Part shown: positions 1-20,000 of the stretch, one piece after another
Layout of the letters: the number at the start of each line of letters is the position of its first letter
How positions within the stretch are numbered: the first letter of the stretch is position 1
NCBI GenBank assembly: GCA_008632985.1
Contig: QPGO01000119.1
Coordinates: forward strand, 246,294 to 266,293
DNA length: 20,000 nt
Origin: Psammoneis japonica
Lineage: Eukaryota
Direction: 5' to 3'
Notes under the pieces: generated by a model
The model's input: only the letters and a program-made list of their open reading frames with translations
Databases searched by the model: none
What the model was told of the DNA's origin: nothing
Program-made: the position numbers and the translations under genes

Positions 1-783
1 CAAATTGAAGCGCTGGGCAACGGCAGCCAAAGAGTCAGTGTCACAGGTGAAATCAGTGTTAAAGTCCCCAAAAACAATGACTTCTCAATTGGAATCCGCC
101 AGAAAATCCTGCAAGACTCGGGACAAGTCTGCACAAAATGCCTTCCTGGGATCGAGTGACGGCGCCCCAATTGNCCGGAGGAGGGCCAATTGTTGAGCAC
201 ATGCTGTTGTCTTCCCTGGGTGTTGTTGGTTCTTAGCGCAAACTCGACAGCAAGAGACAAACACAACTTGGCGTCCATTCCCACCGTCGAAGACTTGAAT
301 TGACCACCTGCCGAGCGGGTCGGATTCTTGAGTCCGGAAGCAAGCAGAAATCGAATTACATGACAACAAGGCCATTCCACCCGGTTTGCATTGCATTGCA
401 AAGGTGGTGGAACTGCTTGAAAAGGCAGACCGCCCATGATGTAAAGACTTGGAAACGGCAGATCTGCACATGGATGAAATGTCGAATTGGGTGGTGTCGA
501 GGCACACCTCCGAGATGCCAATGACATCGGCTTGAATTTCGGAGGCGAGTTGACAGCACTTGTTCACATCACCGCCACGCTTGTCGAATTTACAACCGTT
601 GGCATTGAAGGCGTAAAGGCGCGCATGGTGAGAAAGCTTGGGCCGGAGTTCGTCGCCCACAGGTGCGTTGGTCTTCAGTCGAGAAAAATCTATCCGACGA
701 TCTGTGGGAGGGTGGCAACTGCGTCCGTCTAGGACATTCTGCCAAGCGAGAGCTGGATCTTCAGCAGAAGGCGAATGACTCAT
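1..783 (-). pseudogene. LINE ORF2, N-terminal apurinic-like (APE) endonuclease domain with a premature stop
   Basis: Motifs YAFNANG, DVIGISE, (C)KPGG, DPLGRWS, VSC(C)RVC, DPRKAF. After the in-frame TGA at 87-85 the same frame reads EVIVFGDFNTD (GDFN motif) and stays open to base 1. Confidence 0.88.
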
Positions 784-832
784 TGTTGGGCCATGCTCCT
801 CCGAAGAGAAGACTGAGGCTTAGAGCACTGCA

Positions 833-2749
833 TTAACTTGGTGTTGGCTTGGAAGGAAAAACTCCGGCATCGTGAAGTCCGACGGAAAATTGATGTTGGC
901 GCAAGTGGTGAGTGGGGCGAGGAAGCAACATCAGGAGGTCGCCTGATTTCTTGAGGGGGTGGAGGCGGTGAAGTCCAACCCCTGCCTGAAAATCCGTCTC
1001 CCGTTCTTTGTGGTCGCCAGGGCGTTCAGGAGTTTCCATGTTGTTGGGGCGTTTTCTGGCTGAACTCTGAACAGGTTGGTTTGCTTGAAGCAGTTGAACA
1101 ATTTGGTTCATTTGTTCCTGCACTGCAGCCAACTGTTGGGAATGCTGAAACTGCATGGTGGCCATGTCCTGGGAGTGTTGTTTGGTGAAGGTGTTGTGCA
1201 AAGCTTCCACATCCTGAGAATGCTGTCGGCGGAGATCTGCCAGAGCCGCATCGTTCTTCTGTTGCATTTGTGACAGGGTCTGTTGCACTTCCGCCATCTG
1301 TGCTGACGTGAGGGAAGAACTTGTAGACGACTGAGTCGCTTGAGCGCACAAATGCGGAGGGGACGAGATTCCTGGGTGTCCAGAACATCCGCAAGGAGTT
1401 GCCTGGAAGGAGGGCCTGGGGGCGAAGATTTGCGGAGTGACTGACGGGCTTGGAGAGTGGCCTCGACCAGGGGTGCTGCCACGACCATGGCCTCTGCCCG
1501 CGAACTGTGCCGGAGGAGGAGGACGGTTTGACCTCGAGGCCTGGGTGTCCGTCAATGGAGATACGTCTGAGAAGGTTGGGGACTCCAAACTGCGGATGCT
1601 CGCAGACACTGTGGATTTGCTGGTGTCGGACTGCTCGTCAAGCACACCAGACACGTGAGGTTGATCGGGAAACGGAGGAGACGGCCAAGATTCTTTGGGG
1701 ACATTTGGAATTTGATCCATGATGCATGTGGAGATGCCAGCACGGGAAGCTTTGAAATCCGTACGTTTGACCAACACATTGTACCGACCAGGGGTGGCAC
1801 TAGACTTGCAGATCTCTTTCACTCCGGAGATGGCCCTGATGTGGTTTTCCAAATAAAACATCACATCCGGGGAGGTGCACAACAGCGGAACCACGCAAGC
1901 ATCATGATTGCGACGAGCTTGGAGTTTGACAGCGTTATAGAAGGCGAGTGGCGACATGCACCGTGTCTTTGCCACAACAATGTGTGTCGGCAGCTTGTTG
2001 GAGGCGTGCAGCAAGGTTTTTCCTGCAGTGCGGCAATCGTCTTGTTGCACTTCGATGGCACAAGTGACGGTGCGAAGGGGAGGAGCCAATTGATCGTCAT
2101 CGGCACGAATGGAGGTAGGTGCGAGACGAAATTTCGGCATCTTGGACTTGAATTCGCCCAGATCTTTTGCAAACAACTTGGTAGCTTCGTCGATCGGAGT
2201 GTGCTTGGATGGGGCAGCGACGCAACATGCCGGAGTCGCCGTGTCGATCACTGGCTCATTCCAGCAGTGGCGCTTCAAACCCATGTTGTTTGAGTCTAAA
2301 ATGCTCTGAATATGAGGATGAGAACAGATCTCTCGAAGGGGGACTTTGGTCAAAATACGGTGGCACAGGCGGTGGACGACAGGGCGTTTTTCTCCACTGC
2401 GAGTCGCAGAAATCGTGAAGTGACGTTCGTGCTGAAGGGTTGCAATCCATTCTGCAATGTTGACATTGGTGATCTGGTTGTTGTGGTTGTCCAGGATCTG
2501 AACATCGTTGTGATACGTGAATAGGATTTGTTGCAAAACTTGAAGATGAGCGGTGGTGAGGGTCATCGGCTTGCACGTCGCCTCCGGGCCACGAACATCA
2601 AAGCGTGGGGTGATCTCCACATAGGGAGGCTCTTTCGGTTTAGAAGAAGGTTTGTTGGATGCGTGATCAACAGTGATATCGTCCGCCATATTGATATCGT
2701 TGTTATCGTTGGGGGTATGGCTACCGTCAGCGACGGAACGAGACGCCAT
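833..2749 (-). CDS. LINE ORF1 (638 aa; low-complexity and Gln-rich coiled-coil-like C-terminal part), probably mutationally damaged
   Basis: Long ORF directly upstream of the APE ORF2, same strand and same TpA depletion; Cys/His at many positions where Tyr would fit (HCWNE, TCAIEV, ACVVPL, EICKS). Confidence 0.78.
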   Translation of the reverse strand: MASRSVADGSHTPNDNNDINMADDITVDHASNKPSSKPKEPPYVEITPRFDVRGPEATCKPMTLTTAHLQVLQQILFTYHNDVQILDNHNNQITNVNIAEWIATLQHERHFTISATRSGEKRPVVHRLCHRILTKVPLREICSHPHIQSILDSNNMGLKRHCWNEPVIDTATPACCVAAPSKHTPIDEATKLFAKDLGEFKSKMPKFRLAPTSIRADDDQLAPPLRTVTCAIEVQQDDCRTAGKTLLHASNKLPTHIVVAKTRCMSPLAFYNAVKLQARRNHDACVVPLLCTSPDVMFYLENHIRAISGVKEICKSSATPGRYNVLVKRTDFKASRAGISTCIMDQIPNVPKESWPSPPFPDQPHVSGVLDEQSDTSKSTVSASIRSLESPTFSDVSPLTDTQASRSNRPPPPAQFAGRGHGRGSTPGRGHSPSPSVTPQIFAPRPSFQATPCGCSGHPGISSPPHLCAQATQSSTSSSLTSAQMAEVQQTLSQMQQKNDAALADLRRQHSQDVEALHNTFTKQHSQDMATMQFQHSQQLAAVQEQMNQIVQLLQANQPVQSSARKRPNNMETPERPGDHKERETDFQAGVGLHRLHPLKKSGDLLMLLPRPTHHLRQHQFSVGLHDAGVFPSKPTPS

Positions 2750-2814
2750 GGTGTATCGGCAGTTCTACGGAGAGCGTGGTACTAAAAACACGTAGGTATA
2801 TTCAGTACAAGTAA

Positions 2815-4159
2815 TCGCAGAATTATACCACAAAAAAGTCAGTAGGGGGGCATGTCAAAGGTCTTTCGTCCTGCAAACGTTCGGGAACCTTTGAAACGTA
2901 CGCCCTTGTGGAACACACGCTGCACGATCCCGACGAGAGCAATGAAGAGATATTTCCAATCCTTGAAAGCGCATTTCGTGACACGTACAATGCTCTTAAT
3001 GCCCCCAGTCAAGAAGAGCATGTTTGCGACATGGATTCGAAACGGGTTGTGGAGAGAGTCACGGTGGTAGAGACGGACCACATCTTGAAACACATGGAAG
3101 GCCACAAACTCACCTCACGAAACTTTCTGTATAGAGTCACTGGAAGTTGCGAAGGTATTGGCTGCACAGAAGACACACATCTCTTTGACGTCGGCAATCG
3201 TAGAAACGAGGAGAAGGTCCTTTCTGTGTTGGCGGACAAGACGCCAACAACCTGCGAGTGCGCTGGAGGCCTTACCGAAAATCGCGCACCCATGGAGGCA
3301 GAATTCAGAGATGCTTTCCAAGAAGCGCTCTTCGAGACTGAGGCTCATGGAAGCTTATCGAATTTGAAATCGGTGAACACTGTCATAGAATATGGGGTGG
3401 TTAACTGCGATTGGCAACAAGATGTGTTTGAAAGTGACTATGACTTGGATTTCACTTGTGATCCCTTGGAGAAAGACTTTGGCTATCTCGGTGACAGTTT
3501 CTTGAACGAATACAACTCTGCCGCAACGTAAGTCCAGGAATATTTTTCGTCAAACACCGCATTCAAATATCTCACACTAACCGCTTTCACTATCACGTCC
3601 ATGCAGGTCCTACTGCGACCCAGAGTTCCGCTACATTACGGAAGTGAGTGTCCAAGACGAAGAGCAGCCAATGCTAAGACACAGAGATTTGAATATTGTA
3701 ACAAAGCAGCAAAAGAAGAGGAGCCTTCGGTTTAGAGTCAAGGGTAGGTGTAGGGGGTGCGGGGAAAATGCCCGTCTCTTCAATGACGCTTCTGACAGGA
3801 AGCTCCGTGTTTTAACTGATGCTGGCGATGTTACGTTTGATTTTCGCCACATTTATGACGGCCACGACGAGTGCTTTTGCGCACTGAGAAATGAAGGACA
3901 AACAGCTCAGTCTCAGGATGAATTTGTGCAGAGGTATAATGATGATCTGGCAAGAGCAAACATGAAAGGATTTTTGGGAAGGAAGTATGGTGTAACTGAA
4001 ATGACTTTACACGAAGTTATTGAAAGTATTAAAGAATTTCTAAGTGGCGTTGACTGGGAAAACCGAGATCGAGTCGGGGGTGGATTCCATGGCTTGGACT
4101 ACAGTGACCGGCAGAAACGAGATCGAGACATGGATGATCGGACGAGACGACTGAAGTGA
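2815..4159 (+). CDS. Cys-containing two-repeat protein of unknown function, spliced join(<2815..3527,3607..4159); start codon not found
   Basis: An intron joins ORFs 2908-3531 and 3644-4159 in frame (YNSAAT-SYCDPEFRYITEV). Two homologous repeats: F..[TE]YN...CD...R...V; [YF]RV.G.C.G(..)C.....LF; C.C; EF...[FY]...L. Confidence 0.75.
3528..3606 (+). other. Spliceosomal intron, 79 nt
   Basis: GTAAGT donor at 3528, CTAAC branch point 3577-3581, TGCAG acceptor ending 3606; removal deletes the stop and restores the repeat motif. Confidence 0.88.
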
Positions 4160-4769
4160 GTTGGGCACATACTTGGTTCACTATATACTACTTCTATAAG
4201 CAGCTTATTTACTTCTCCTCGTGCCTAGTTTAGAAAAGTCAAAAAGACACTAACACCAACTTGTCGGTATCCTCAAACGACGGCAGCGAGGACGAGAATC
4301 AGGATTCCATCACGGCTGTGAGCAGCGCTGGCGTTGAGAGTTTTCAAAGGCACTTATTGAACTAACAAGCGAACGAGACATGAAACGCTCATGTCATCGT
4401 TCCATGTTCCCGATATTGTCCTTAGGCACTCTAGCAAGGAACTGAACTTGTCCCGGTTCAGCTCGCCGTAGTTCTTTCAAAGATGAGTTTCGCGCGGGGG
4501 CAAATGTACGTAGTGAATCTGGCAATACAGGATTCAAAGGACGCTTGCAAAAGTCGTCGCTGCCCCCAAAGAGGCGAACTTCTGAACAATTCACATGACT
4601 CCTTCAATCTTTGCTGCTAGCTTTTTGAGTCCTCTCACGTGCTTCTTCTGCATCCCAATATAAGGATATCCTTGTTCATCATTGTAGCTGAAATGAGCAT
4701 TTAGCATGGATAGTCATTCACACTCCAGCAAGGTACTCCCAATACCCTTGGTAAACTTTGCGTCCTCCG

Positions 4770-4784
4770 CCCCCCCCCCCCCCC
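4770..4784. repeat. C15 homopolymer
   Basis: 15 consecutive C. Confidence 0.95.
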
Positions 4785-4904
4785 GTTCAGTTTTGCCGTC
4801 GCGTACTTGTAGAATCCAATCGCTTCATTGTGACAAGTGTAAATAAAAGTAGAACGTATTGAAAGTCATCCCTCCTCTAGCTAGAACTTCTTTGATGAAA
4901 TAAA

Positions 4905-6911
4905 TTACATTTTCTTTCCAAACTTGAAATTTGGATCCAACAATGGTTTCCTGCGACGAGAGGAACGCCTCACGCCGGCAGTTGGACTCGCCGCTGCAGG
5001 AGTCTCTTGCTGCGAGCTCGTGTCATTGGAAGTCCCATTCTCCGGTTTCAAGGCATCATGGTTCTCTTCGTTTACTTTCTCGGTTTGTTTTTCTTCTTGC
5101 TTGGCAATCTGTACCTCTTGCTCCTTTTTGCTGGTGGCTGTAGTTTGTTTCCCTTTTTCTTGCTCCTCTTTGGCTTGTGCCTCTGGCTCCATTGATTTGG
5201 TAGTTTTAGATTGTGTCTCTTCTCCTTGCTTTTCTTTAGTGCTACTAGAATCGGATGATGATGATGATGTAGAAGAAGAAGATGATGATGACGACGAGGA
5301 GGCGGAGCTACTAGAAGAAGACGATGATGAGCTCGTACTCGACAAATCCTCTTCCTCCTTCTTGGATCCCTCTTCTTTCTGTGCCTCTGGTGAAACGACA
5401 CCCTTTTGCTCGTCATTGTCGGGTACACGATCCACTACGCTGTCTTGGTCTGGATCAATGTCACCTTTTCCTTTGTCACGCTCCTTCTTGTCGCTTGGTG
5501 AATCCGGGATCACGTTGTCTTTGTCTTTGCCAGGCTCCTTCTTGTCGTTTGGTGAATCCGGGATCACGTCGTTTGTTTTCTGTTCTGGCGAATCAGGCTC
5601 TATTTCCTCTGGCGGATCTTCTTGCGTGACTGGTACTGGAGCATGTTCTTCGTCTGGCTTGGATGACGAAGAAGAACTTTCGCTTGAACTCGAAGAGGAA
5701 GATGATGACGAACTCGAGCTGCTGCTGCTACTACTGCTACTACTACTTGTAGTTGAGCTCGAATCATCCTCGTCTTCATTTTCGTCGGCCATGTCTGTTT
5801 TAGCTTTTGATTCCTCATGGTTGCTAGGTCCGTCCTCTTTGTTAGCAGTTGAATCGTTCTTTGCTTCTTTTGCGTTTTCCTCTTTATCTTCAACACTTGT
5901 CCCCATCCCTTTTATCGCGCCATTCACAACACTTGATTCCTCATTAGCTTCTTCGTTGGTGTCGTCTTTTGTTTCCTCTGTCTCTTTCACAGTGGGTTCC
6001 GTCTCTTCTGTTCCGCTGCCATTAGCTGCTGTCTCGGGCCCATTTGCCTTTGCGGTAGCCTCATGCGCCTTTTCATCAGGACTGGCCAGAGCGGAAGACG
6101 TTGCAGTGTCTATCTTTTCCGAGGCAATTGCAGCAGCAGCTGTAGTAGTCGCCTGTTCCTTGTTGGCAGTTGAAGCCAAGCTAGCCACTTTGGCCGCCTG
6201 CAGGATACTGTCTTTTCCTGCTTCTTCTTCGGTTGGTGGCGATGCCTCCTTGTGATAGGCATTGTTCAATTCCTCTTCCGTATCCATGTGACTCGTCGAG
6301 GAGCCTGAAGATGAATTCGAGGACGACGATGCTGCTGCAGATGCATCACTGTTGTCTTCATTGTTATCTGCTGCTGCGTCTTGAACCACCCACCCCTCTA
6401 CAGCTCCTCTTCTTGGTGGTTCATATGCCAACGTCATGGTTGTGGAAAGAGGCGGTGTTGGATCATCGCAATTGATGGGATCATTGTCGTTTCTGCGTTC
6501 ATAATCATACACCCAATACTCGACAGGCTCCAACCACAACGTAACATGATATTGTTGACCCGGTGGTAACAAATCGGCTATACAACAAAAGGGATCCCAA
6601 AACGTTTCGTGGCTTCCCACTTTATGATAGGCTCGAACAAAATAACGATAATGAGCAACGCGCTGTTGTTGTTCACGTCGTTGTGGTTCCATTATAATGT
6701 TCATTCGTATTCCCTGTCGAAAATTGCACCAAAAATCAATAATTTTGTCTCCTTGTGGTAAATGGGGAAAATACCACCACGTTGCTAAACCTCCTCGCTG
6801 TATGATTTCCAAAATCCAATCGGCAACCGTTGCCGAAGACTTTGGAATCAACGTTGTCATCAAGGCGGTATCGGAAGACCAGTCAACATTGATTGTAGCC
6901 AACGATGACAT
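4905..6911 (-). CDS. Hypothetical 668-aa protein: ~150-aa globular N-terminus, long acidic/poly-Ser disordered region, basic C-terminal NLS-like motif
   Basis: ATG-to-stop ORF of 2 kb; poly-Ser tracts with mixed codons; VIPDSP.DKKE duplicated with 54-bp period (~5480-5515 and ~5534-5569); RRSSRRRKP near the C-terminus. Confidence 0.8.
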   Translation of the reverse strand: MSSLATINVDWSSDTALMTTLIPKSSATVADWILEIIQRGGLATWWYFPHLPQGDKIIDFWCNFRQGIRMNIIMEPQRREQQQRVAHYRYFVRAYHKVGSHETFWDPFCCIADLLPPGQQYHVTLWLEPVEYWVYDYERRNDNDPINCDDPTPPLSTTMTLAYEPPRRGAVEGWVVQDAAADNNEDNSDASAAASSSSNSSSGSSTSHMDTEEELNNAYHKEASPPTEEEAGKDSILQAAKVASLASTANKEQATTTAAAAIASEKIDTATSSALASPDEKAHEATAKANGPETAANGSGTEETEPTVKETEETKDDTNEEANEESSVVNGAIKGMGTSVEDKEENAKEAKNDSTANKEDGPSNHEESKAKTDMADENEDEDDSSSTTSSSSSSSSSSSSSSSSSSSSSSESSSSSSKPDEEHAPVPVTQEDPPEEIEPDSPEQKTNDVIPDSPNDKKEPGKDKDNVIPDSPSDKKERDKGKGDIDPDQDSVVDRVPDNDEQKGVVSPEAQKEEGSKKEEEDLSSTSSSSSSSSSSASSSSSSSSSSTSSSSSDSSSTKEKQGEETQSKTTKSMEPEAQAKEEQEKGKQTTATSKKEQEVQIAKQEEKQTEKVNEENHDALKPENGTSNDTSSQQETPAAASPTAGVRRSSRRRKPLLDPNFKFGKKM

Positions 6912-7556
6912 ATTGTGAATATATGAGTACAGTATATTTCAAGAATACAAGAAGACTGCAACAAACACAATCAATTTAGCAGTCGCTGCAACCTTTTCCA
7001 TTTTCTTGTGAAGCACTTTTATTGTGTGGGGTGCGTCGGAAGCTGAGAGCAGAGACATCACGAAAGATCTTTGACGCGCGACGACAGACTTTTGCGCGGG
7101 AATCTGAGCGAGCGAAGGACAGGCATTTGCGCGCGAAACGAAGGATGATTTTCTTCGATCCAGTGTGACGACTAACTCGACCAGATTCTCGCATTTTCAA
7201 TTTCGGCTTTGACCGCACACATGCTTAGTGCGGTACAACCCGCTGCGCTTGCATTGTGTAAATAAGAATCGGGTTCTAATGTTGCAGATGCAGGAGATGT
7301 TCGTTTCATGTTGGTTCTTTTTCGGATTTCGTTGGTTGCTCTCAAAATTTTTATTTTCTGTGACTTGCCGACCGCAGAACAAGAACCCACTTGTGATAGT
7401 TGAGTCGTGCGAAGGCGAGGCTTGCCTCATTTTTTCTTCACATCGATCATCATTCACAATCAAAAATAGTTTCAAACTGGAGCTACAGGTCAGCTTTGGC
7501 AGTTCACAAACACTTCAAGACCATTTTTTTGTTTCCTTCTACTGCGGTTGGTGTCA

Positions 7557-8546
7557 ATGAGGAATAAGGAAAATGCTTCTTCCGCAAGCGACGAAGATGC
7601 AGAAGCGACTGCTGCTGCGTCTCGGCAGGAAAGTACCCGTATGATCCGCAGTCATCTCGATGCACATTTGGCATTGAATCCAAACTCCTCTTATGTATCA
7701 TGGATCGCTACACTTCACCCTGAAAATGCCCATGTTACCATTGATCCTCGTTTCTTTACTCCAGACAATCCGTGGAAAACTGTCTATGAAGAAGGAAGAG
7801 CTACTACGACGCACCACGTGACGGGTGTACCCGTGGCTAATAACGGAGAATCTGAGTCGGAACAAGCATCCAACACAGCCGCTCCATCCGAAACTCCAAG
7901 GAAACACGGTGGTTTGTTTGCTTGTGTCTTTGGCTTTACCATTGCTCTCATTGCCGTCCTTTGTGCCTTCATACTCGAGACAACCTCTGCTCCGTTTTAT
8001 CTCGTGGCGGTTGGTTTCCACAAGATTTGCCACTGCTGCAAGCTCAACGTATTGACCTTTCTTCCTCTATCCATTTTTTGGATTATGCTTCAAGTGTTTT
8101 TATGGACAGACATCCTTTTGCTCTGGGTCAATGTCTTGCTTGTCGAGCTCTTGGCCGTAACAAATGCCATGATTTGTACCCTCTTTTCGTTGGACTGTGG
8201 TGTGGGTAAAGCGTGGCACCAACACACGCGGCGTTTGGCTCACTACACTCGTTGGGCCTTTCGAATGCCCTTTCAGGAATGGAAGAATCCCCCCAGGTCA
8301 AACTGTTGTCCAGTGGCCACGGCCAATGAGGAAGAGGTTGAGGACGCCGTCAACGTGGTGATGGTTCGGGAGTGTTGCATTACGGATCGTCATGATGGCG
8401 CTGATGCGATTCACCAGGACTCCATTCCATCTGTGCCAGCGACTGCTCCAACAGAAGACGAAGAAGAACACGTCGTGGTCATTCCCCAAGATAGTATCGT
8501 CATTCTTGATGATGAAGATCAAGAGAAGGACGTTGAGTACAAGTAG
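7557..8546 (+). CDS. Hypothetical multi-pass membrane protein (~329 aa)
   Basis: First in-frame ATG at 7557; N-terminal SSYVSWIATLHPEN segment, 3-4 hydrophobic stretches, acidic tail. Confidence 0.8.
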   Translation: MRNKENASSASDEDAEATAAASRQESTRMIRSHLDAHLALNPNSSYVSWIATLHPENAHVTIDPRFFTPDNPWKTVYEEGRATTTHHVTGVPVANNGESESEQASNTAAPSETPRKHGGLFACVFGFTIALIAVLCAFILETTSAPFYLVAVGFHKICHCCKLNVLTFLPLSIFWIMLQVFLWTDILLLWVNVLLVELLAVTNAMICTLFSLDCGVGKAWHQHTRRLAHYTRWAFRMPFQEWKNPPRSNCCPVATANEEEVEDAVNVVMVRECCITDRHDGADAIHQDSIPSVPATAPTEDEEEHVVVIPQDSIVILDDEDQEKDVEYK

Positions 8547-9050
8547 TAGGACCGGAGAAAGCTGGTTTGATACAGTCGTGCATTATAATATGCACTGCAA
8601 TTCTTAATTGTAAGAATTTTGTTTCGAATTAGTGTGTTAAACTGCATGTGTTGTGTAAACAATCTCTTTTAGTGAAAATTCCACAAAGACAAATAGAAAA
8701 TCGAATATACTCGCACGCGCCTCTTTCGTTATCGTGGTAGATATCAGCGTGAGGCTGCTTGCAAAGGAAACGAGATTCTAGCTGTTCTCGAGAATAGTCC
8801 GAGAGGATCCGAAGCATCGAAACAAACTGTTCGACCAGTACTTTTTCTCCAACGGTTTTGTTGCGTTGACCTCAAACGAGGAAGAATCAAAAGACAAACA
8901 GTAGTTTCCAATCCAAGTCGAAGGCTGCTCCGGTGCGTTCTGGCGTTACGAGCCATGTCGAGTTGCTACGCCTGGTCTCTAGAGGCGGCCTTCGGATCTC
9001 TCTAATTCGATCGCAAAATAACTTAATACCAATAATCTATTTGACTCTGA

Positions 9051-10904
9051 CTAATAGTCAGCCATATCGTCACTGTCGAAGAGGCAGCTTTGCCCTAACC
9101 TCCGAGTCTCGTCATATGGCCCACGAGAGTGTAATTCACCACCACCTTGTGTAATGCACTTGAACCACGCTAGATCAAAATCCTTATCCATGGGAGTCTC
9201 CGGGTGAGACTCAATCTCTTCCTGGAAATCTCCATACTCCCATCCGTCGTCACCGTCCATGACGACATTTCGGGTGATACCAATTAAGGCATCTACAGCA
9301 TGTTCAATCTTGCCACCTTTGCTAAAGTAGTGTCGTACCTTGCGCTCATCAAAGCTAATATAGAAACATCCCAATTGTTGTCGAATGCAATATACAGTCG
9401 GTACCCTGCCTTTGTGTAAGATGTACATCATGATCTCCCACAGATGGAGCCACGTGTCAACAAAACTCTGATAAAGTCCTTCGGGATGTTGCTGGAGAAC
9501 CTCGGCGGGAATGTAGGCAAGTCGACTCATTCCAAACACACATTGGGCAATGGAGGTAGGCCGACCAGGAGAAAAGAAAATGCCTTCATCTGAATGTTGA
9601 AAGTCCCTTTCAATTTCAGCAGTAATAGTCAATGCGCGGCGCATCCGCGGTGACATCCACCCGTCAATCAGCGACTCTTGCATGGACGGTGGCATGAGCA
9701 TCGAGGTGATTTCTAGCTCTGGAATGACATCCATATATCGTGGTGGGAGAGACTCTATCCCCATGGCGGCTTCAGAGTCATCCCGTGATTGTCTCGCATC
9801 CTCGACTATTTTGAGCGGCGTGTCACCATAGCGATTGGTTGCCATTGTATCTGCACCCAGAGAAATGAGATACCTAATGGCGTCATGGTTTTTCGATGCG
9901 GCAGCCACATGGATTGGCCGGTCACCGATTTCATCACCCTTCTTGATATCGCCACCCAACCGAACAAGGGTTTGAAGTATACTCAAAGTCTTAGAACTAG
10001 AAACACTGATCGCCACCGCAATGAACAAGGCTTTGGACTTTTCAATTGATGCCCCGCGCTGAATAAGATCTTGAAGTCGTGAGGAATAATCTTGTACAAT
10101 CGAGGACCTTGCTGATGATTCAATCGCTGCTGTTCTAGCAGACGAACCACTGCGCAACCACTCTTTTACAAGATTCTGGAGTTCCAAATCCAAACCTTGA
10201 GGCTGTTTCCGTTTTGGCTCCATGTAAAGTTCAATCTCTGAAGCTGATGCTTTGCTCAACCATTGTGATTTTGCGTAGGCGGGTGGATGATTGGCTTGAA
10301 AGTACATGGAGGACGTTAGAAACCATGTGTTCCACAATTCGGGTCGATTCCCCGCTTGCACAAACCCTAAACGAGCCCAGTGTCGAGCAATCTTGTGTTT
10401 GGCAGTTTCGAAATCTCCGTTTCCTCTATCTTCCCTTGAAAGAGAATTCGTCCAGTGTCCAATAGTGAGCGTCCCGGGTTGCAACACTGCCAGGCTCCAA
10501 GAATCTTTCAGTAAAACAAAAAGCTCATGAAGCAGTCGAAGTCCCAGATCGTTTCCTCTGTGGGACGGCTCCACCTCGACTTCTTCCAAAACGAGAAATC
10601 CACCTCTTGAGACACACGAGCTGTTTGAAGTCAATAATGGGTGATTGACTCGGTTGGCAATCCCGTGTTTTTCACAAAAGATACGAGCCATGTCAATGGT
10701 TTCTGCGGAAATGGCATCGGCAAACTCAAAGAAATGGCGCGACGGTCTGGGCAAAAGAGCCCCTCTGACAATCGCTGCAAGCTCGCCACCTTTCTCTTTC
10801 AATTCCATGGATATTCTGTATTCATTTTCATACTGGAGCTCCACTTTGTACTCTGTGCCGCCAGGAGGCCACGAAAAAAGACTTGACGAGTAGCGAACCA
10901 CCAT
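9051..10904 (-). CDS. Protein with N-terminal GNAT-like acetyltransferase region and central ankyrin repeats (617 aa)
   Basis: EVEVEPSHRGNDLGLRLL (GNAT motif A-like) and HWARLGF (motif B-like); ankyrin GDRPIHVAAASKNHDAIRYLISLGADTMATNRYGDTPL. Confidence 0.82.
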   Translation of the reverse strand: MVVRYSSSLFSWPPGGTEYKVELQYENEYRISMELKEKGGELAAIVRGALLPRPSRHFFEFADAISAETIDMARIFCEKHGIANRVNHPLLTSNSSCVSRGGFLVLEEVEVEPSHRGNDLGLRLLHELFVLLKDSWSLAVLQPGTLTIGHWTNSLSREDRGNGDFETAKHKIARHWARLGFVQAGNRPELWNTWFLTSSMYFQANHPPAYAKSQWLSKASASEIELYMEPKRKQPQGLDLELQNLVKEWLRSGSSARTAAIESSARSSIVQDYSSRLQDLIQRGASIEKSKALFIAVAISVSSSKTLSILQTLVRLGGDIKKGDEIGDRPIHVAAASKNHDAIRYLISLGADTMATNRYGDTPLKIVEDARQSRDDSEAAMGIESLPPRYMDVIPELEITSMLMPPSMQESLIDGWMSPRMRRALTITAEIERDFQHSDEGIFFSPGRPTSIAQCVFGMSRLAYIPAEVLQQHPEGLYQSFVDTWLHLWEIMMYILHKGRVPTVYCIRQQLGCFYISFDERKVRHYFSKGGKIEHAVDALIGITRNVVMDGDDGWEYGDFQEEIESHPETPMDKDFDLAWFKCITQGGGELHSRGPYDETRRLGQSCLFDSDDMADY

Positions 10905-11330
10905 GGCTGACGTGCGAATGTATAAGACACCGCTCTTATCGCCCGCAAAGAACCAACGAGACTTGTTTGTCTTAATGAAAGCAGTGGCAATAATTTATAC
11001 ACGTCCAATGAAACAGTAGATTCTTTTTCAACACCAAGAGTTGCATACAAGTAGCGGCACCGAACTGTCATGGCATTGATGCTTTGCGCGGCAATCTCAC
11101 AGTAAAGTATGGATAGACGTTACTAGACGTAGTATGAAACTCTTCAGATGCTGATGAGATTATTGAATTTTTTCGAAAAGTTTATTTTATTCTTTATTCG
11201 TACAGTATGGTAAAGAACTAATAAGACCATTGAATATTATCGAAAAATTTAGTTGAAGTCTATCATTTCTTGCGAACACCGATTTTTCTTTTCCAATAGC
11301 AATCTTTCGCGCTGTAGAGTCATTACGTAG

Positions 11331-11466
11331 AAATTGTGTAGGACAATACCATGACAAGTCTGTCTGTCTGTCCTTAGTGAATTTTAACTTTGCGAAAAAT
11401 TGTGTAGGACAATACCATGACAAGTCTGTCTGTCTGTCCTTAGTGAATTTTAACTTTGCGAAAAAT
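11331..11466. repeat. Perfect tandem duplication, 2 x 66 bp
   Basis: 11331-11396 is identical to 11397-11462, plus AAAT repeated at 11463-11466. Confidence 0.95.
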
Positions 11467-12534
11467 GGATTTGACTGTTTTCTGATCAGGCGTATTTTTC
11501 TTCAACACATTTGCAAAAATACGCCTGACCCGATAACAGTCAAGTCTATTTTTGCACAAATTGTGTGAACATAACAGTTTCATTACAAAAACGTGTAGAT
11601 TCTACAGGCGTCCATAATTAATTTATGGGTTATACGTCACGGGTCATTTTCAAAAGATTCCCATTGACTCTCTTGACTGCTGTCAGAATGATCCGTACAG
11701 TGCGGTAGTTGCAGATAGAGGATGCTTGCCATAAAGTATGATGTTCTTCGCTGATTGATTGGTGATGCGATTTTTGTCATGTTCGACTCTCAATTTGCAG
11801 CTGGACGCAACAAGACGATGTCTTCTGTTGCGACGATGGCGAGGGCGCGCACCAAGGCCATTCTGCCAGAATGCTTTGCTGAAGGGTTCTTGACGGTGTT
11901 TGCTGGAAATGGCTTTGTCACATTTGATCATTTCAGATGCCACAGGGTGTGTGTGGAAGTCTCCAATCTCATTTTACTGCACGTCCGAAGCCAGTGTGCG
12001 ACGAGAGCCGAGAGCATGCCTCCACTGCAGTTCAAACAAACAGTTTGAAAAGGCGGCCAGCATCGTCAGGCGTCAGCTCCTGCTAGAGAGGGCCCTAACT
12101 TGGGAAGGCATAACCCGCGTTTGCTTCGTGTCAAAAACCCATACGTGCTTCAACATAAATGTACACAGAAAAAAACGCGATACCTTTTTTCAAAGAACAA
12201 CCTTCGACAACCTTCTACACGTGTTGGATCCGCGAATCGAGCGTGGGATCCGCAATCGCGAGTTGCGGTTGATGGGATCAAAATATGCACTCCTTAATTT
12301 ATCATAAAGACACTCTCATATTTTGAATGGCTAATTTCATCGACGCCAATTGCCCTTTGGATGGTCGTGATCGAAAAAGTGTCGCGGCGCCCCAACATTT
12401 TTCCCAACGCACCTGTTTCCGCTTGCCTCTCATGCGTGCATCGCGGGCATCGCCAAGCACGTCTCACATCTCACACATCATGTAAAAAAATGAATGACAA
12501 CACAACTCGCAAGCACCAGCAAACTCAAGACAAA

Positions 12535-13107
12535 ATGGCGTTTTTCCTTTCATCGGATACCAGTATATCCTCTTTGGTAGAGCACGACCTGGCATCCACT
12601 TTTATCGACGACTTGACCTTTTCTTCAAAAGAATCTACTACTAACGCCGAATCGCAGAACGCTCCAAGTAGCATTCAGATTGACTTCCCACCTTCATCTC
12701 CTTTCGATGTATTTTTAGGAAAAGGCAAACGAATTCATGAACGAAATCGTTTATTTCACGAAGCTATCGACGAGAATCGAAAGCGTTACGCCGAGGCGAC
12801 GAACAAGCGAGAAAAGACAAGCATCACATACGAAATTATAAATGGGGTAAAATCGAAAGGAGGAAGGTTTCTTCAAAAAGATGACGCATCAGGAATGTAC
12901 ATTGAAGCCAGCGATAAAGTGGCTAGAGAAAAGGTGAGTCATGCACTGCGGGCTCCAAAGCCCGCTCGTCCATCGCTGCAACAAGGTGCCGGTAAGAAAA
13001 GAAAGAGGACCATTACTCAAATTGATCAAGAAAAACTCGAGAATTTGTTTTCAAGTCAACGTCAAATTTTCCAAGAGCTGTTGGAGTCGGAGGAGGATAA
13101 TGATTGA
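12535..13107 (+). CDS. DUF6824-type domain protein (family expanded in diatoms), ~190 aa
   Basis: DVFLGKG...NRLF...I...RKRY...KREKT.I..EII..VKSKGGRFL...DKVAREKVSHALR signature. Start taken at AAAATGG 12535; upstream in-frame ATGs exist. Confidence 0.85.
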   Translation: MAFFLSSDTSISSLVEHDLASTFIDDLTFSSKESTTNAESQNAPSSIQIDFPPSSPFDVFLGKGKRIHERNRLFHEAIDENRKRYAEATNKREKTSITYEIINGVKSKGGRFLQKDDASGMYIEASDKVAREKVSHALRAPKPARPSLQQGAGKKRKRTITQIDQEKLENLFSSQRQIFQELLESEEDND

Positions 13108-13872
13108 ACAAGTTCTTGCGGATCTGCCCAACGTGAGCAGAATGGTTGACTAAAAGGCGACGCGCCTATCCAATCCAATATATTATAGGTGACCAAGATC
13201 AATTAATAACTTCATATTAACGGATACATAGAGACACGAATCTTTTCCTTTTTCTCGTTGCTATGGACTCTAGATTGACTTTGGTTGTATCTACCACAGT
13301 ATCGCCGCCGAGTCAGGTCCGCGGGAGATGCCGGTACAGCGTATCGGCGGTTGCTTACCAGAAGATTGCAGAAAGTCTTGTTCCCGTCACGAATAATCAC
13401 GATTTTAAGGAATACCAAGGTAGTGGACATTTTGGTCTCGAAATCAATCATCTGAAAGCATCCTTTACAAGTTCCAAGGTGCACACTCGTTTGTTGAATT
13501 GTATCTCATTTTTCGAGGAGGCAAATGAATGCCATAATAATCTTTCCGTCTTTTCCATTGAGTTCTCCAAATGAAGTCAGAGTAATAGAGAGTTAGGAAT
13601 GCATTCAGACGTGACAAGGACAACATATCCCATCCGCTGATAACAGCACCAAGAAGACATCGGGACAGCTTCAAGATGTGGAAACGCACTATTCATTATT
13701 CTCCTTGAAGTTGCTTCTCGCACGTCTCGTTCGGTTTTGGAGTTGACCGGTAGAGAGCATGCGAGCTACGAGCTCCGGTATCTTTCCGTACTACCAGTAG
13801 ACCGTGTTGAAGCATGATAATATGTAGCTGTTGGCGTTGAAGCAGGGAAAGGGTATCGAAAGGAAACCGGCC

Positions 13873-14700
13873 ATGGCGTATTGGCGACAAGGATACCGTG
13901 ACTGGGACGATCCATGGTATGACGACAGTGAGGAAGAAGAGGAGGACATTACGTTTTACCGACCGGATGGGAAAACGGAACGCAAGAGCATAGAGTGGTG
14001 TCGATCCAATGGCTTTTTCGAGATTGAGGAGGGCCTGTGGTCCGGCGATTGGTACTGGGAACGTTTTCCCGAGAAAAAGAGAGAATTGGAACAAAAGAAG
14101 AGAAAAAGACAAGAAGATCTCAAGGATCCAAAGTATTGGGAAAAATGGCATGCGAAGCAGCGAGCAGATCGGCGGGCTAAACTCCTAGACGAAGTGTATG
14201 GCTCGGAGTACAGCAATGCACGAGCGCTTGCAGAGTTACGGAGAATGGGTGAGGAAGAGTATGAGTTTGAATGCCCCATTGTATGGTGCAAGAGTCGCTT
14301 CCCAACTAATGACGATATGCAAGAGCATGTGAGAGAACAATGCGGGAAAGGACATCATAAATACCGAGTTGAACATGGTATTCCGTTTGAAGGGATTGAT
14401 CCACTCGAAAAGAAAAAGTTAGAGCAACAACTACAAGAATTGGAACGCGAGTAATGGTTGCTTGAAGTAGAGTTAGAGGTCAGGCGTGAGTATGAGTTGG
14501 GTCCCAACAAACTATTGTACGCCGACAAGCACCTGTTTGATTTGGAGCTTGAGAATCGTCTGGACGAGAACCTGCTAGAGTTGGTTTACTGGCTAGAGTC
14601 TGTGCGATTGGCTCGATGCAACGCAAAAATGTGGGACGAGCAAGCCTACACACCAGAGCGATCATTTATGAAAAAATGGCTAGGGTTGGATGAACGTTGA
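13873..14700 (+). CDS. Charged hypothetical protein with a C2H2-like zinc finger; ends at 14454, or continues to 14700 through one in-frame TAA
   Basis: ATG 13873; FECPIVWCKSRFPTNDDMQEH motif; the same frame stays coding-like for 81 codons after TAA 14452-14454. Confidence 0.62.
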
Positions 14701-15329
14701 TTTTCAATTGGCGTGAACAAGAGTAGGACGACATTGCCACCAACTGAGGCTACATAACACTATTAACGGTAAAATCTTTGAGTCAATCGATGTGTCTACA
14801 GCGTGTTGTGTCCCTTAGATGATAAGGAATACTAGTACTACAGTACTTTCAACATGCACGCAGGTGCCGACAAATTACAACAAAAATGGCAACCGCTTGC
14901 TTGATGCGATGTCTGATTGATGACGTCCTTTTGCTTCACCCGAACATGAGGCATCTCCAGTCATGCGCGGGTGATGTGTAAGTAGAACTACTTTACTTTC
15001 GCATCTGTTTATCTGAATACGAATTGTCAACGGAGACTTGGAGTTCGTAATCCTTCGTTGTACTGTATGTGCAGTACAGTACCGTACTGAAGCTATCATC
15101 CGCGCCTGAGAAGGCTACCTTACGTACATTTCAACGTATCGTGAAAAGCGTGAATCAACTAATGGTAATTCGTATGACGATGGCGTCCCATGATGGATGC
15201 AGTAGCTCTTTGCTACACCTCCCGAAGTGGCCTCCCGACCCTCCGCCATGGCCATCCTTCTTTTTGCGGATCCTTTTCCCTGCTGTTCTTGCCTTTGCCA
15301 TCGTCTCCTTTCTCCATTCCCTTTCGGTC

Positions 15330-15840
15330 ACTCCCTTCGCTCCTTTCGCCTGTACATTTCTACGCCCCCTCTACTGGTCCCCAGTTTCCACGATTGCCAA
15401 CTGCCCTTCCAACTGCTCATTCCATTGCCCTTTCATTCTTCCTCACTCCCTTTCTTCATCCCAACAACTGCCCTCTGCCATTTCCCTTTCTACTCTTCCT
15501 TATGCCCTCTCTCCTTCTCCGCCTCGTTCGATTCTTTTCCCTATGGCCCCTCTTTGCCCCCTGACCTCTTCCCCACTTCCTCCTCTAGCAACCCCTTCAA
15601 TTGCCCCCCTTCCTCCCATGACTCCCTTCGCGCTTTTAGTTGTGACTCCTCTCCTATCGTTCCACATGCCTTTCTACGCCCCTCCGAACACGATTGCTTC
15701 CATACTCCTCTACAGCTTCCCCTACCCTTCAGCCCTCTCTACTGCCCCTTTCTCTTCCATGACTCCCTTCGCGCTTCTGCTTGTGCCTTCCCCCCTATGT
15801 TTCTATGCGCCCTCTACGATCATTCGTGTACGATTGCCCA
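15330..15840 (+). repeat. Three degenerate direct repeats in the element 5' region
   Basis: Ordered motifs ACTCCCTTCGC (15330, 15621, 15762), then TTTCTA(C/T)GC, then ACGATTGC in each unit. Confidence 0.75.
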
Positions 15841-15956
15841 CGTCATGCCTTCACCTTCCCTCCTCCTATCTTTCTACGCGTTCTGTGACCTTGTCGCTGT
15901 TTTTGGCGATCCGCACACAACAACGACTCTCTGCAACTTTCTCTTTCCGTTTGACC

Positions 15957-17619
15957 ATGTCCACTCTCGCCTCCGCTCCTCCTGCTGACGTTAAGCTTTT
16001 AGCTCAGGTCCTTCATCCTACTGACCTGCCTGACATGCCCACCATTGCTCTTGCGTCTGATGTCATTCGCGACATTGTTCTCAAGACGCCAGAGCATCAC
16101 AGCCGGCGTGTCTCTCCGCTCCTCCTCACTCTTGGCTCTGTGACGCTTGCTGAAACCAAGAAACGCTCCCACCCCCACCAGAATCAGTGGGCGTCTTACT
16201 TTCACGTTGCTCTTCACCCGGTGACGCCCGATGGCACCACCTTTGCCTTCGAATCCTTCCGCAGCCAAGCGCTCTCTTTTCTCCTTCAGAAATGGCATCT
16301 GCACCCTGCGTCGCACTTCACCCCCTTCCGCTCTGCCAGCTCCCCTTCCAATTTTCTCCACCCTGACTTCTCTCCGGTTTTGGCTGTGGACAATCCTTGG
16401 GCTCGACACTGCACCTTTGTGATCCCGGCCTGCAACTCTTTCGATGAAAAGGCTCGTGGCATCCTTGCTGGCCCCTCTCCAACCCTCTGCGGTTCTTCTT
16501 GACGCACTTCTGAGTTTCTCCTGTCCCGCCTTTGTTCCTTCCTTGTTGGCAAGATTTCCAGCACTGCGACCAATCCCATTCTTCAATCCTTCCGAGACTG
16601 TCCTGCCTTTCTTGGTCTCGTTGGAATTCGTCCTTCGCAATGCCCCGCTAACTCGGCCCAGGCGCGACGCTGTTCTCTTCCGGTTTTTTACATTTCTGCT
16701 GCCTCCGATGCCGTCTGGAACACCCCACTTCATGTCACCAATCCATCCAATGCGCCACCTGCCTCCTTCTCCATCCTGGGGACATCCACCACCATCATTC
16801 CCTTCCCAGCCCCGGCCAACTTTGCTTCCACCTACAACGCCCTCTCCGAGCAACATGAAAGTGGTTGTCTCTGACCATCTTCTCCTTCCTCTCACCCAAC
16901 CTGGCATCAGTCGTCTCCTTGCTGCAACCAATCTTCGCTCCCTTGTCCCCATCTTCTCTGCTCATGACTCCCTTCCAATCAAGTGCAAGCTGCTCTTTTT
17001 CCCGTCTCTGTGCACAATTGCTCTTGTGGATGCCAACCCACATGACTGTCCCAGCTTTCCCTTGGATCTCCTTGCCTCTGCGGCGGAATCTACCCATGAC
17101 GACAGCATGGCTTCCCCATCCTGTGCCTCTGCTGCTCTTCAGCCGCCTGCCCCCTCTCAAGATTCTTTCTCGTGTCGTGCCCTTGAGCTGCTTGCTCAAG
17201 ACTGGCAGCTCCCCAAACCCCAAGATCCGCTCCCCACTGCTGCATCTCCTTCCTCTCATCCTCCCCAAGCCCACTCCCTCACCACCGAGCCTCCTCCCTC
17301 CAAGCATCCCCACTCTTCTCCCGACACTTTCTCTCCGCCCCCTGCCATTCCTGCCGCAGTTGTGCAGACCTCTCCGCCCCCCACCACTCCCGATGCAATC
17401 ATGCAGACCGAATCTGATGACTCGGTTTCTCCTCAGCAGACCCAGCGCGAGATGGAACTCTTGGATGTCCTTGATGCCTTCGTAGGTGCTTGCTGCCCGG
17501 CCAGCCTTTCTGCCTGGAAACCTTTCTACGAAGAAGCCATCCGGGCTGCAGCCCCTGATGTCGACTCCCTCCGCGATCTCATTGCCTCGTGGAACCCACC
17601 GAAGCCCGTGCCCCGCTAA
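15957..17619 (+). pseudogene. Putative ORF1 of the CRE-like element, frameshifted near 16470-16500
   Basis: MSTLASAPP... frame ends at 16502 and overlaps a second frame running to TAA 17617-17619. The first frame is also open upstream to ATGs at 15162-15180, so the start is uncertain. Confidence 0.55.
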
Positions 17620-20000
17620 CCTGCCCCTTCTGCTCCTGGTCCCCTCCTTCCATTGATGCATCATCTCTTCCTGCCACTGTGCGCAGCCATCTTCGCCAGG
17701 AGCATCCCCGCCTCTCCCTTTCTCATGCACCTGCGTCCTTCTTTGATGCCGCTGGTTTGCATGTCTGCAGGCATTGCAATCACAGCCAATGCACCTGCCT
17801 GTCTGCCACCCACCTCCGCAATCACTTGCAGAACAAGCACTTTGCTCCTCGCTCTTCCCTCAACACTGACATTGTTCTCTCGTCCTTCCATAATCTGGGT
17901 GACTGGGGCCCCTCGCCACAATGGCTCCATGCTCTTGCACTCGAGCCTCCGCCTTTCCGAGCTTCCTGTCGCCGCAAGCTCTCGTCCTCTGCCCGTGAGG
18001 AACTCCACTCCGCTCTTCATCATGTGACAAGCTGGGCACTGGCCGCCTCCCAGCCCCCATCTGACCCCTCCCATCTCATTCCTACGTGGCAACGTGACTC
18101 TGCTCCCTTCTGGAAGCTTCTCTTGCTCTTTGAAGCTCTCGTTCTTGCTCCTGTCCCGCCACGCTCCAAGTTTGGCCCTGCCATTGCCTCCCGCTTGTCC
18201 CTCTTCCGCCGTGGCTGCATTCGCCAACTCTGTCACGAAGCCTGCTCCCACACGCCGTGCCTCTCCTCATCTTCCCCTGACTTTTCTGCTTCCACCTGCT
18301 GCCATTCCGCTCAAGTCTGCGCCGACGAAGATGACTTTCACTCGGCCCACTCCAAGCTCACCTCTGCACTTCCTGTTGCTGCCGTTGCTCCTGAGCGCCT
18401 TCCTGCCATCCTCAAGCTCTGCCCTCCTCGCCTGCATCCCTCCGACCTGCCCAATCCTCCTTCAACTCGCTCGGCCTCCTCCCTTCATGACGAGCCCATT
18501 GAGCTCTCCTCCGACGCTCTTCTTTCTGCTCTCTCCAAATGCAAGCCTGGGACTGCTGCCGGTGTCTTTGCTGATTCCACTGACCTCTTCAAGTCCTGCG
18601 CCCTTTGTTCCACCAAAACCCCGACAGGAGTTGCTCAACGTCCCTGCTTGTCATCCTTCCGTGAGCTTGTCCTTCTCCTGCTCCATGGCTCCATTCCTCC
18701 CTCCGTCCATTCCTTGTTTGCTTCAAACTGCTTTGTCGCTCTGCACAAAGATGCTGGCGACCTCAACAAGCTTCGCCCCATTGGTGTCGGCACTGCTCTC
18801 CGTCGCATTGCCGGCTCCATCGTCATGACTCTCTTTGGTTCTGCATTTGCCGAATGCCTCCTCCCAGATGGCCAATTTGGCATTGGTGTCAAAGGTGGCC
18901 TCGATTGTCTCACTCACTCTGCTCTTGCCAACATCGAACGATGTCTTTCTTCTGCCGACTCTGCCAAGGTTCTTCTTCTTCTTGACCTTGCCAACATGTT
19001 CAACAAAGCATCCCGAGATGCCTGTCGACACGTTCTCACCTCCACCCCTGCCTTCCATCCTCTGCTTCCTTTTTTTGACCTTCCACACCAAAGTTCCAAT
19101 GCATGTTGGTGTCGCCGACCCGATTCTTCCTGGGGCTCCTTTCTTCAAGAAGAGGGATTTGCCCAAGGATGCCCTCTCGGCCCTGTCTTCGCCAGCCCAG
19201 TCCTCTCTCTGGTTCTTCGTCCAATCAACCAAGAGCTTCAAGAACGAATCCCTGGCCGTTCCTCTGTCTCAGTTGGCTCCTGCGTTGATGATGCTCATGC
19301 TTTCCTTCCCCATTCGGTGCTCCCATGGTTCCTTGAACGCTTCTCCGCCCTCGGCGCTCCCTGCGGGATCTCCCTCAACCTCCGTAAAACCAAGATCCTC
19401 GCCTCCATTGCCGGTGTTAGCCCCATCCCTGCTCTCCCCCCTTCCCGTGCCGATTCTCTCCGTGCTGCACTTTCCTTCTTAAACCCCACCAATGACCCCT
19501 CTTACAACCCCGAACTCACCTCTGGCGTTCGCTTCCTCGGACAGCCCCTCGGCTCCCGCGACTTCGCCACCTCCTTCCTTTCCGATGCTTCCTCTGCTCT
19601 CTCCGACAAAGTTGACATGCTTCTCACCCGTCTTCATGACAAACAAACCCAGGCTCAACTCTTCAAGCACTGTTTTGTTCTATCCTCTGCTCACCTCCTT
19701 GGGGCTGACTTCCACCACAACTTCGACCCCGACAATCCTCCCGACCCCTTTCTCTGGACCTCTCCATTTCAAGATTTCCTCCTCACCGTTGCTCACCGCT
19801 TTCTTCACTGCGTCACTTCCTACGCCACTCCTTTTCCTGACCATTCTATTGCCATCGCCTTCCTTCCTGCCTCCTCAGGCGGGTTTGGTCTCCGGGATCC
19901 AACAGCTGCTGCCATTCCTTCCTTCTTGGTGTCGCTTCTCCGCTCATTCCGCTTTGCTTTGCACGGTGTCAGCCTGCCATCTGGCGCTTCTGTTTCCCTT
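17589..20000 (+). pseudogene. ORF2: two C2H2 zinc fingers + reverse transcriptase; frame open to window end but catalytic motif altered
   Basis: Hand translation, 804 codons without a stop: CPFC..HLRQEH, CRHC..HLQNKH, KLRPIGVGTALRR, QFGIGVKGG, LLDLANMFN, GFAQGCPLGP, SCVDD (19278-19292), LNLRKTKI, GVRFLGQPLG, LPASSGGFGLRD. Confidence 0.92.

Follow-up and report, generated by a model that had tools for sequence, protein, structure and literature searches.

Background

Hypermutation defences that target cytosine, such as repeat-induced point mutation (RIP) and APOBEC editing, are established, whereas a counterpart directed at adenine or at the dinucleotide TpA is backed by one preprint on one alga. 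In mutation-accumulation lines of the chlorarachniophyte Bigelowiella natans, 231 of 302 mutations fell within two integrated viral regions, all GC-biased mutations in these regions occurred at TpA and yielded TpG or CpA, TpA-poor coding sequences (CDS) were enriched for reverse transcriptase (RT) and endonuclease-RT domains, and indirect evidence led the authors to propose an ADAT2-like deaminase (Mettrop et al. 2026, bioRxiv 10.64898/2026.01.13.699255). Here we describe a 20,000-nucleotide stretch of the Psammoneis japonica assembly (GCA_008632985.1, contig QPGO01000119.1, positions 246,294 to 266,293, forward strand; hereafter the window). Positions 1 to ~2830 of the window are the 5′ part of a dead APE-type retrotransposon lacking long terminal repeats (non-LTR), that is, a long interspersed nuclear element (LINE), lying on the minus strand. 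The body of this left element is severely depleted of TpA, and we consider that it has probably undergone a host-driven hypermutation of TpA to TpG or CpA (A:T to G:C), which would have acted on chromosomal DNA after the element had inserted.

The closest known match is the TpA hypermutation of integrated nucleocytoplasmic large DNA virus (NCLDV) and virophage DNA in B. natans. Both cases show changes from TpA to TpG or CpA with a loss of TpA and a gain of CpA and TpG, both affect foreign or mobile DNA in local, sharply bounded zones while sparing host genes, and in both RT or endonuclease-RT domains are prominent among the TpA-poor coding sequences. They differ in that the B. natans targets are viral inserts in a chlorarachniophyte, while the host here is a diatom-like stramenopile and the targets are non-LTR retrotransposons. 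The depletion is also far deeper in the window, with an observed/expected ratio (o/e) for TpA of 0.11-0.17 against 0.45 in the B. natans NCLDV region, the edge of the depleted zone cuts through an element, and what the window preserves is a fossil scar, carrying no mutation rate.

RIP in ascomycetes is similarly a dinucleotide-specific transition hypermutation that ruins mobile repeats copy by copy and leaves neighbouring genes untouched. It converts CpA/TpG to TpA through C to T changes and thereby enriches TpA, whereas here TpA is destroyed and CpA/TpG gained, and the window gives no sign of a dependence on duplication or on a sexual phase. Editing of the ADAR/APOBEC type in animals (ADAR being a metazoan family) also employs a host deaminase and leaves clustered transitions in retroelement copies, and ADAR prefers U before A; such editing acts on one RNA or cDNA strand in strand-coordinated runs, unlike the strand-mixed and almost wholly TpA-confined changes seen here. 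CpG decay of methylated transposons raises TpG and CpA and is present in the window as a minor second signal, but it cannot remove TpA and accounts for no more than a minor share of the differences reported below. Within the literature on TpA hypermutation, diatoms and retrotransposons we found no description of such a process in diatoms; the passages of PMC4504042 that we consulted concern nucleosome positioning only.

Results

TpA depletion of the left element

Two features of the left element define the depletion:

1..2620, minus strand: TpA-depleted body of the left retrotransposon, 25 TpA, o/e 0.17, running off the left end of the window
836..1323, no strand assigned: TpA-free stretch of 488 bases by TpA count, in the C-terminal part of open reading frame (ORF) 1

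The initial annotation of this DNA, made from its letters alone, had reported about 25 TpA in the first 2620 bases, none in 836-1323 and a sparing of the 12 kb of host DNA that separates this element from a second one on the right, and exact counting bore out all three statements. Base composition predicts 144 TpA in 1-2620, of which 25 are present, while TpG, CpA and CpG stand at o/e 1.38, 1.37 and 0.82 respectively. The corresponding values for the 12 kb of host DNA are TpA 0.55, TpG 1.16, CpA 1.14 and CpG 0.98, and the TpA value over 2800-14500 was taken as the host rate. At that rate the Poisson probability of 25 or fewer TpA in 1-2620 is ~1e-12. When the sequence was divided into 500-base bins, all five bins of the left element lay between 0.04 and 0.26, below the lowest of the 23 host bins (0.31; Mann-Whitney P 1e-5). 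The TpA-free stretch, bounded by TpA at 834 and 1324, is only mildly remarkable within the element, a complete absence of TpA having a probability of 0.0095 if the element's own rate is assumed and of 6e-7 if the host rate is.

The loss of TpA with a reciprocal gain of TpG and CpA is the signature reported by Mettrop et al. It is the opposite of what RIP leaves behind, since C to T changes at CpA would raise TpA and lower CpA and TpG, whereas the left element has TpA at 0.17, CpA at 1.37 and TpG at 1.38.

Independent loss of ancestral TA in different versions of the element

To compare versions of the element we utilized 233 Logan contigs of a public sequencing run (X1) aligned to positions 1-4000 of the window, of which 45 were at least 99% alike to it and 188 less so. 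The contigs differ from the window at 179 places, comprising 136 transitions and 43 transversions. The best-supported 40 of these 179 places, to which the classes and fractions that follow refer, resolve into 34 events:

Window TG or CA, other version TA: 6 of 34 events
Window TA, other version TG or CA: 6 of 34 events
Adjacent double difference, TG against CA: 6 of 34 events
CpG-type change: 6 of 34 events
Other transitions: 4 of 34 events
Transversions: 6 of 34 events

With the direction of change inferred, 18 of the 34 events are TA-derived and the other 16 are not, against an expectation of ~20%. Among the single transitions alone the TA-derived fraction is 12 of 22, where 0.198 would be expected (P 3e-4). 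The paired differences are the most telling class, as TG in one version opposite CA in another has hardly any origin other than an ancestral TA that was lost separately in two lineages. Distinct versions of the element therefore lost the same ancestral TA independently.

A contig of 397 bases covering 2292-2688 differs from the window at 15 positions. Among the best-supported places, all 12 differences within its span that carry its depth figure are TA-derived. As a rough estimate, this pair points to ~14 ancestral TA in 329 bases, and the common ancestor of the window copy and the contig version would have had a normal TA content. Roughly four fifths of the TA steps of the LINE were converted into TG or CA, independently from copy to copy.

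At the 12 sites where the window is the mutated partner, the outcomes read in plus-strand order TG, CA, TG, CA, CA, TG, CA, CA, CA, TG, CA, TG. These 5 TG and 7 CA are interleaved within ~100 bases, and both strands were thus mutated. Such interleaving disfavours the bias of one RT as well as the editing of a single strand. RNA or cDNA editing confined to one strand should leave one sense-strand outcome only, while the two outcomes occur here in similar numbers at the identified sites and TpG and CpA are about equally raised across the element.

The summed depth of the contigs was 131-865 on the element and a flat 57 on its flank, although depth does not equate to copy number. A weaker CpG-type decay is also visible between versions, the window having TG or CA where others have CG at 85-87, 561, 776, 1931 and 2458, and CpG stands at o/e 0.82 in the left element and 0.98 in host DNA. 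A second run (X2), which behaves like RNA but carries no record of being such, contains a contig of 1378 letters that represents a diverged version of the LINE 5′ region at 2418-2798, with a depth of 89.9 compared to 15.4 on the host gene next to the element, and some copy of the LINE family may be transcribed. Most of the element is otherwise uncovered in X2, and a third run (X3) gave no aligned contig.

Loss of conserved tyrosines in the endonuclease

Two codons of the endonuclease encoded by ORF2 stand out against its relatives:

388..390, minus strand: Cys codon (TGC) in place of the Tyr of Y-K-P-G-G, residue 144; column Tyr 75%, Phe 12%, Cys 1% of 150
247..249, minus strand: Cys codon (TGT) at a nearly invariant Tyr column, residue 191; column Tyr 96%, Cys 0% of 140

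The initial annotation had listed three motifs in which Cys occupies the place of an expected Tyr and proposed that such columns be scored for Tyr to Cys or His changes against endonuclease homologues. We aligned ORF2 to 150 homologues and found three endonuclease columns that are at least 50% Tyr; the window copy retains Tyr at residue 69 and has Cys at the other two, residues 144 and 191. These correspond to the motifs QCKPGG (390-388) and SCCRVC (249-247), for which the expectation of Tyr holds. The third motif, TACAQQ (201-199), had been misjudged, as its column is Ala in 40% and Tyr in 18% of sequences and hence is no Tyr column.

Across the 228 aligned residues the window copy contains 0.44% Tyr and 6.1% Cys, compared to 2.7% and 2.1% in the homologues. 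It departs from the majority residue at 24 positions. Five of these fit a TpA to TpG change, namely Y144C and Y191C together with I99V, I188V and T66A, the latter three because they involve a first-base A to G change behind a codon ending in T; two more (R160C and T149M) fit CpG decay. The replacement of the nearly invariant Tyr by Cys may be a consequence of TpA hypermutation.

A metagenome scan with one homologue (P0004) recovered four loci of distant relatives, whose DNA has TpA o/e 0.58-0.64 and whose matching frame contains 2.5-3.6% Tyr. All of the relatives displayed have Tyr at the second column (residue 191). One relative, however (locus L002, 3001-3900), which is near-intact with 1 stop in 1871 codons and has TpA o/e 0.59, carries Cys at the Tyr of Y-K-P-G-G; a Cys in the first column is therefore by itself no proof of hypermutation. 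The initial annotation had conceded that its interpretation would fall if intact homologues were naturally both Cys-bearing and TpA-poor. The relatives are not TpA-poor, and the first half of that objection applies to L002 at the first column. The TpA poverty is a product of mutation in the window copy and not of the composition of the family.

The same scar in an unrelated element

The right end of the window is occupied by a second element:

16000..20000, plus strand: TpA-depleted body of a second RT-bearing element, 19 TpA, o/e 0.11, TpG 1.51, CpA 1.26, with an RVT_1 match

Its ORF2 (17559-19998), which carries the RVT_1 match, was compared with a full-length homologue from the family of the left element, and the two share no detectable similarity (best E 0.69); a search of solved structures with the right ORF2 found nothing. 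The two elements lie on opposite strands and differ in composition, as had been stated from the letters alone. Alignment of the right ORF2 to 19 homologues gave 11 columns with Tyr in half or more of the sequences, at which it has Cys six times, His once, Phe three times, Leu once and Tyr never. Control columns were largely kept (Phe 20/21, Trp 6/7, Cys 5/5, His 6/7). Replacement of Tyr by Cys or His is thus common to both elements, affecting 2 of 3 columns on the left and 7 of 11 on the right.

Because two unrelated elements bear the same scar, the bias of one RT is disfavoured, and the earlier suggestion of a host-driven process gains support from two elements with TpA o/e of 0.11-0.17 and raised TpG and CpA. 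TpA content separates mobile from host sequence, with the retroelements at 0.11-0.17, the 12 kb of host DNA at 0.55 and the gene adjoining the left element at 0.48 (over 2827-4000).

Upstream of the right body, ~770 bases within 15190-16020 are very rich in C and T, with a normal TpA content and the same strand skew as the body, and may be the leader of this element. Tandem Repeats Finder, run on 14800-16200, reported one weak 12-base array only.

The edge of the depleted zone lies within the left element

The boundary between the left element and host DNA comprises two features:

2621..2827, minus strand: 5′ end of the element, comprising the leader and codons 1-43 of ORF1, without TpA depletion, 18 TpA in 2621-2826, o/e 1.2
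2852..4159, plus strand: two-exon host gene in head-to-head orientation to the element, from ORFs 2815-3531 and 3581-4159 with a 79-base GT..AG intron at 3528-3606

TpA content changes abruptly, from 2 in 2400-2620 (o/e 0.15) to 15 in 2621-2800 (o/e 1.25). The element itself continues past 2620, because ORF1 runs in frame to 2749, the 397-base contig spans 2292-2688 and the summed contig depth holds at 216-281 as far as 2814 before dropping to a flat 57 at 2815. The true 5′ end of the element falls between 2827 and ~2855. By our own reading, the loose-end consensus of a contig aligned to 2798 agrees with 2799-2828 at 21 of 30 places, 12 of them in one uninterrupted run, and 4 of the 9 mismatches (2799, 2807, 2812 and 2825) are positions where the window has TA and the consensus CA or TG. 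Likewise at 2623 another version has TG where the window has TA. Depletion in the window copy therefore stops at ~2620, about 210 bases short of the 5′ end, leaving a region where other versions were mutated and the window copy was spared.

The ATG of the host gene at 2852 lies within ~25 bases of the LINE 5′ end. Its intron is skipped in one X2 contig, the behaviour for which X2 is likened to RNA, and is covered by X1 contigs at the flat depth of 57; neither exon ORF matched a Pfam family at E ≤ 0.01. We infer that position determined where the mutated zone ended, possibly through open chromatin at the active neighbouring gene. On the right, too, the element is spared where it faces the host block, with TpA o/e 0.76-0.82 over 15000-15990, and its depletion begins at ~16020, just past an in-frame ATG at 15957-15959.

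Identity and layout of the left element

The coding features of the left element are as follows:

833..2749, minus strand: ORF1, 638 codons, ATG 2749-2747, TAA 835-833, without detectable relatives
1..819, minus strand: start of ORF2 with an APE-type endonuclease domain (PF03372, E 2e-10), first ATG 783-781, cut by the window edge
85..87, minus strand: in-frame TGA stop in ORF2, from the translation; G at 87 in 3 of 3 contigs gives CGA (Arg) in other versions

The tandem arrangement of two ORFs, with a spacer of 49 bases between ORF1 and the ORF2 ATG, and the occurrence of multiple versions in public contigs are those of a LINE; Ambal, the clade label of the initial annotation, would be a candidate placement. 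Within the ORF2 endonuclease domain the N, E, D and GDFN positions align. Among 1.84 billion representative proteins the domain has 1094 relatives at E ≤ 1e-3, the best being 40% identical and 1934 residues long. Eleven full-length homologues contained APE in every case, zf-RVT in 6, RVT_1 in 2 and RVT_3 in 1, and their alignment includes an F-V-D-D block; the RT region of the window copy itself falls beyond the window. Searches of solved structures returned endonucleases only with the A3 profile and a chance match only with homologue P0004.

ORF1 contains 0.9% Tyr and 5.1% His. None of 7234 candidates proved homologous to it at E ≤ 1e-3, its only Pfam match was sub-threshold, and a metagenome scan with it gave 54 pattern matches and no relative. 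The TGA stop in ORF2 is a CpG-type C to T change private to the window copy and forms part of a second, slower decay. The endonuclease-coding part also contains a single N at 173, near which one contig lacks a single base at 174 and carries an insertion behind 159.

Between the elements, a host ORF at 9051-10994 (minus strand) encodes ankyrin repeats, and another at 12298-13107 (plus strand) carries DUF6824, for which the nearest Atlas clusters are commonest in Bacillariophyta, offering a lead to the affinity of the host.

Discussion

Proposed mechanism

The pattern would be explained by a mutator that turns TA into TG or CA in the body of the dead LINE. Such a process would act on chromosomal DNA after insertion and inside a silenced domain, the edge of which need not follow that of the element. 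Its chemistry may be the deamination of adenine to inosine at TpA on either strand, by analogy with the proposal of Mettrop et al. for B. natans. Frames stay open under this process because it destroys TAA and TAG and cannot create either, and 81 ORFs of at least 80 codons are found across the six frames of the window. Spurious open frames include one of 240 codons antisense to ORF1 (1571-2293, plus strand) and one of 320 codons at 15999-16961 (minus strand).

Several observations weigh against this mechanism or limit it. The 16 events that are not TA-derived (6 CpG-type, 4 other transitions and 6 transversions) show that ordinary decay has operated too, and the relative L002, which is not TA-poor, bears Cys in the first Tyr column. 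The comparison of versions draws on only 40 of the 179 differing places, and on Logan contigs in place of reads, so that versions are unphased and allelic and paralogous copies indistinguishable; X1 may be the very sample behind the assembly of the window, and at some places (e.g. 2755) the letter of the window occurs in no aligned contig. The timing after integration is not proven by the window, a LINE having no LTR pair and the depleted zone not spilling over into flanking host DNA. Since both 5′ ends face the host block, a domain edge is inseparable from a sparing specific to the 5′ end. The mechanism is proposed from sequence evidence.

A further difficulty concerns the direction of Tyr loss. 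Over both elements the Tyr columns became Cys eight times and His once, which a strand-symmetric process does not predict. A preference for TA followed by a 3′ pyrimidine would predict the excess of Cys, and here the indications are mixed. Surviving TpA are poor in RTAY (6/44 against 143/463 in host DNA, P 0.015), which hints at such a preference, while their enrichment in YTAR is not significant (12/44 against 82/463, P 0.15). The identified mutated sites do not confirm it, however, as by our own reading only 5 of 12 lie in the favoured TAY context.

Alternative explanations

The strongest alternative, although in our view an unlikely one, is that copies are born already edited, through a host deaminase that acts on element RNA and/or first-strand cDNA at each round of retrotransposition. 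Editing before integration would account for a given ancestral TA having different outcomes from version to version, for depleted zones that stay within elements in the window and for both affected elements being retroelements, and ADAR-type enzymes favour a U on the 5′ side of the adenosine that they edit (Discussion of Mettrop et al.). Were only the sense RNA edited, however, a single outcome would result, so that the interleaved 5:7 ratio of TG to CA requires both RNA and cDNA as substrates. The restriction to TpA is moreover tighter than a neighbour preference, with 4 of 34 events being transitions that are neither TA-derived nor CpG-type, and the edge at 2620 is sharp, without a gradient and specific to the copy. 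In B. natans the signature arose de novo in resident viral DNA of the chromosome, according to the preprint, which speaks against editing beforehand.

Somewhat less likely still is a modification of thymine, in which the T of TpA in repeats is, for example, oxidised by an enzyme to a base resembling 5-hydroxymethyluracil (5hmU) and then misread or misrepaired to C. This too would be a locally targeted process at the level of DNA, and since TA to CA on one strand is TA to TG on the other, the attacked base is indistinguishable from sequence. In dinoflagellates a TET/JBP enzyme produces 5hmU, which is enriched on transposable elements and contributes to their silencing (PMC11572971). The passages of that paper at hand describe neither a TpA preference nor a mutational scar, such a base or enzyme is without evidence in the host organism, and the B. 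natans preprint favours adenine deamination, albeit on indirect grounds.

That the TA poverty was inherited from a master copy, reflecting codon usage or selection against UA in RNA, is largely refuted and must be regarded as highly improbable. TpA is scarce in host coding DNA as well (o/e 0.55) and ORF1 and ORF2 are almost open, as such an origin would have it, but open frames are also expected from the loss of TAA and TAG. A composition shared by the family is difficult to reconcile with the 6 sites among the best-supported ones at which other versions have TA and the window TG or CA, with the 6 further sites of TG against CA, with a 96%-conserved Tyr that is Cys in the window copy, with the o/e of 1.2 at the element's own 5′ end or with the 0.58-0.64 of its relatives.

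Equally hard to credit is an error bias of the element's own RT, or an artefact of assembly or base calling at modified bases. Retroelements do use an error-prone RT and long-read assemblies suffer systematic base-calling errors at modified motifs, yet the scar is the same in two elements with unrelated RTs, its outcomes are strand-mixed, 45 of the 233 public contigs match the window at 99% or better, and different versions have different letters at one site, unlike a systematic error. GC-biased gene conversion among repeats was also considered and rejected, as it would not be tied to TpA.

Conclusions

One 2026 preprint has already described a process of this kind, in an unrelated alga. What the window adds is the presence of the scar in a diatom-like genome, on two unrelated non-LTR families and with independent hits between copies. 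An edge that passes through an element beside an expressed gene provides a handle on what defines the target. In practical terms, dead elements that keep long open frames risk being mis-called as genes whose products have Cys or His in place of Tyr. The wider proposal, that diatoms possess a position-directed, TpA-specific A:T to G:C mutator which acts on any silenced mobile DNA after its integration and whose borders are set by active genes, seems to us evenly balanced between holding and failing. If true, it would be a mirror image of RIP that works through adenine chemistry and, together with Bigelowiella, would place such a mutator in two branches of the SAR supergroup, pointing to an old and widespread eukaryotic genome defence.

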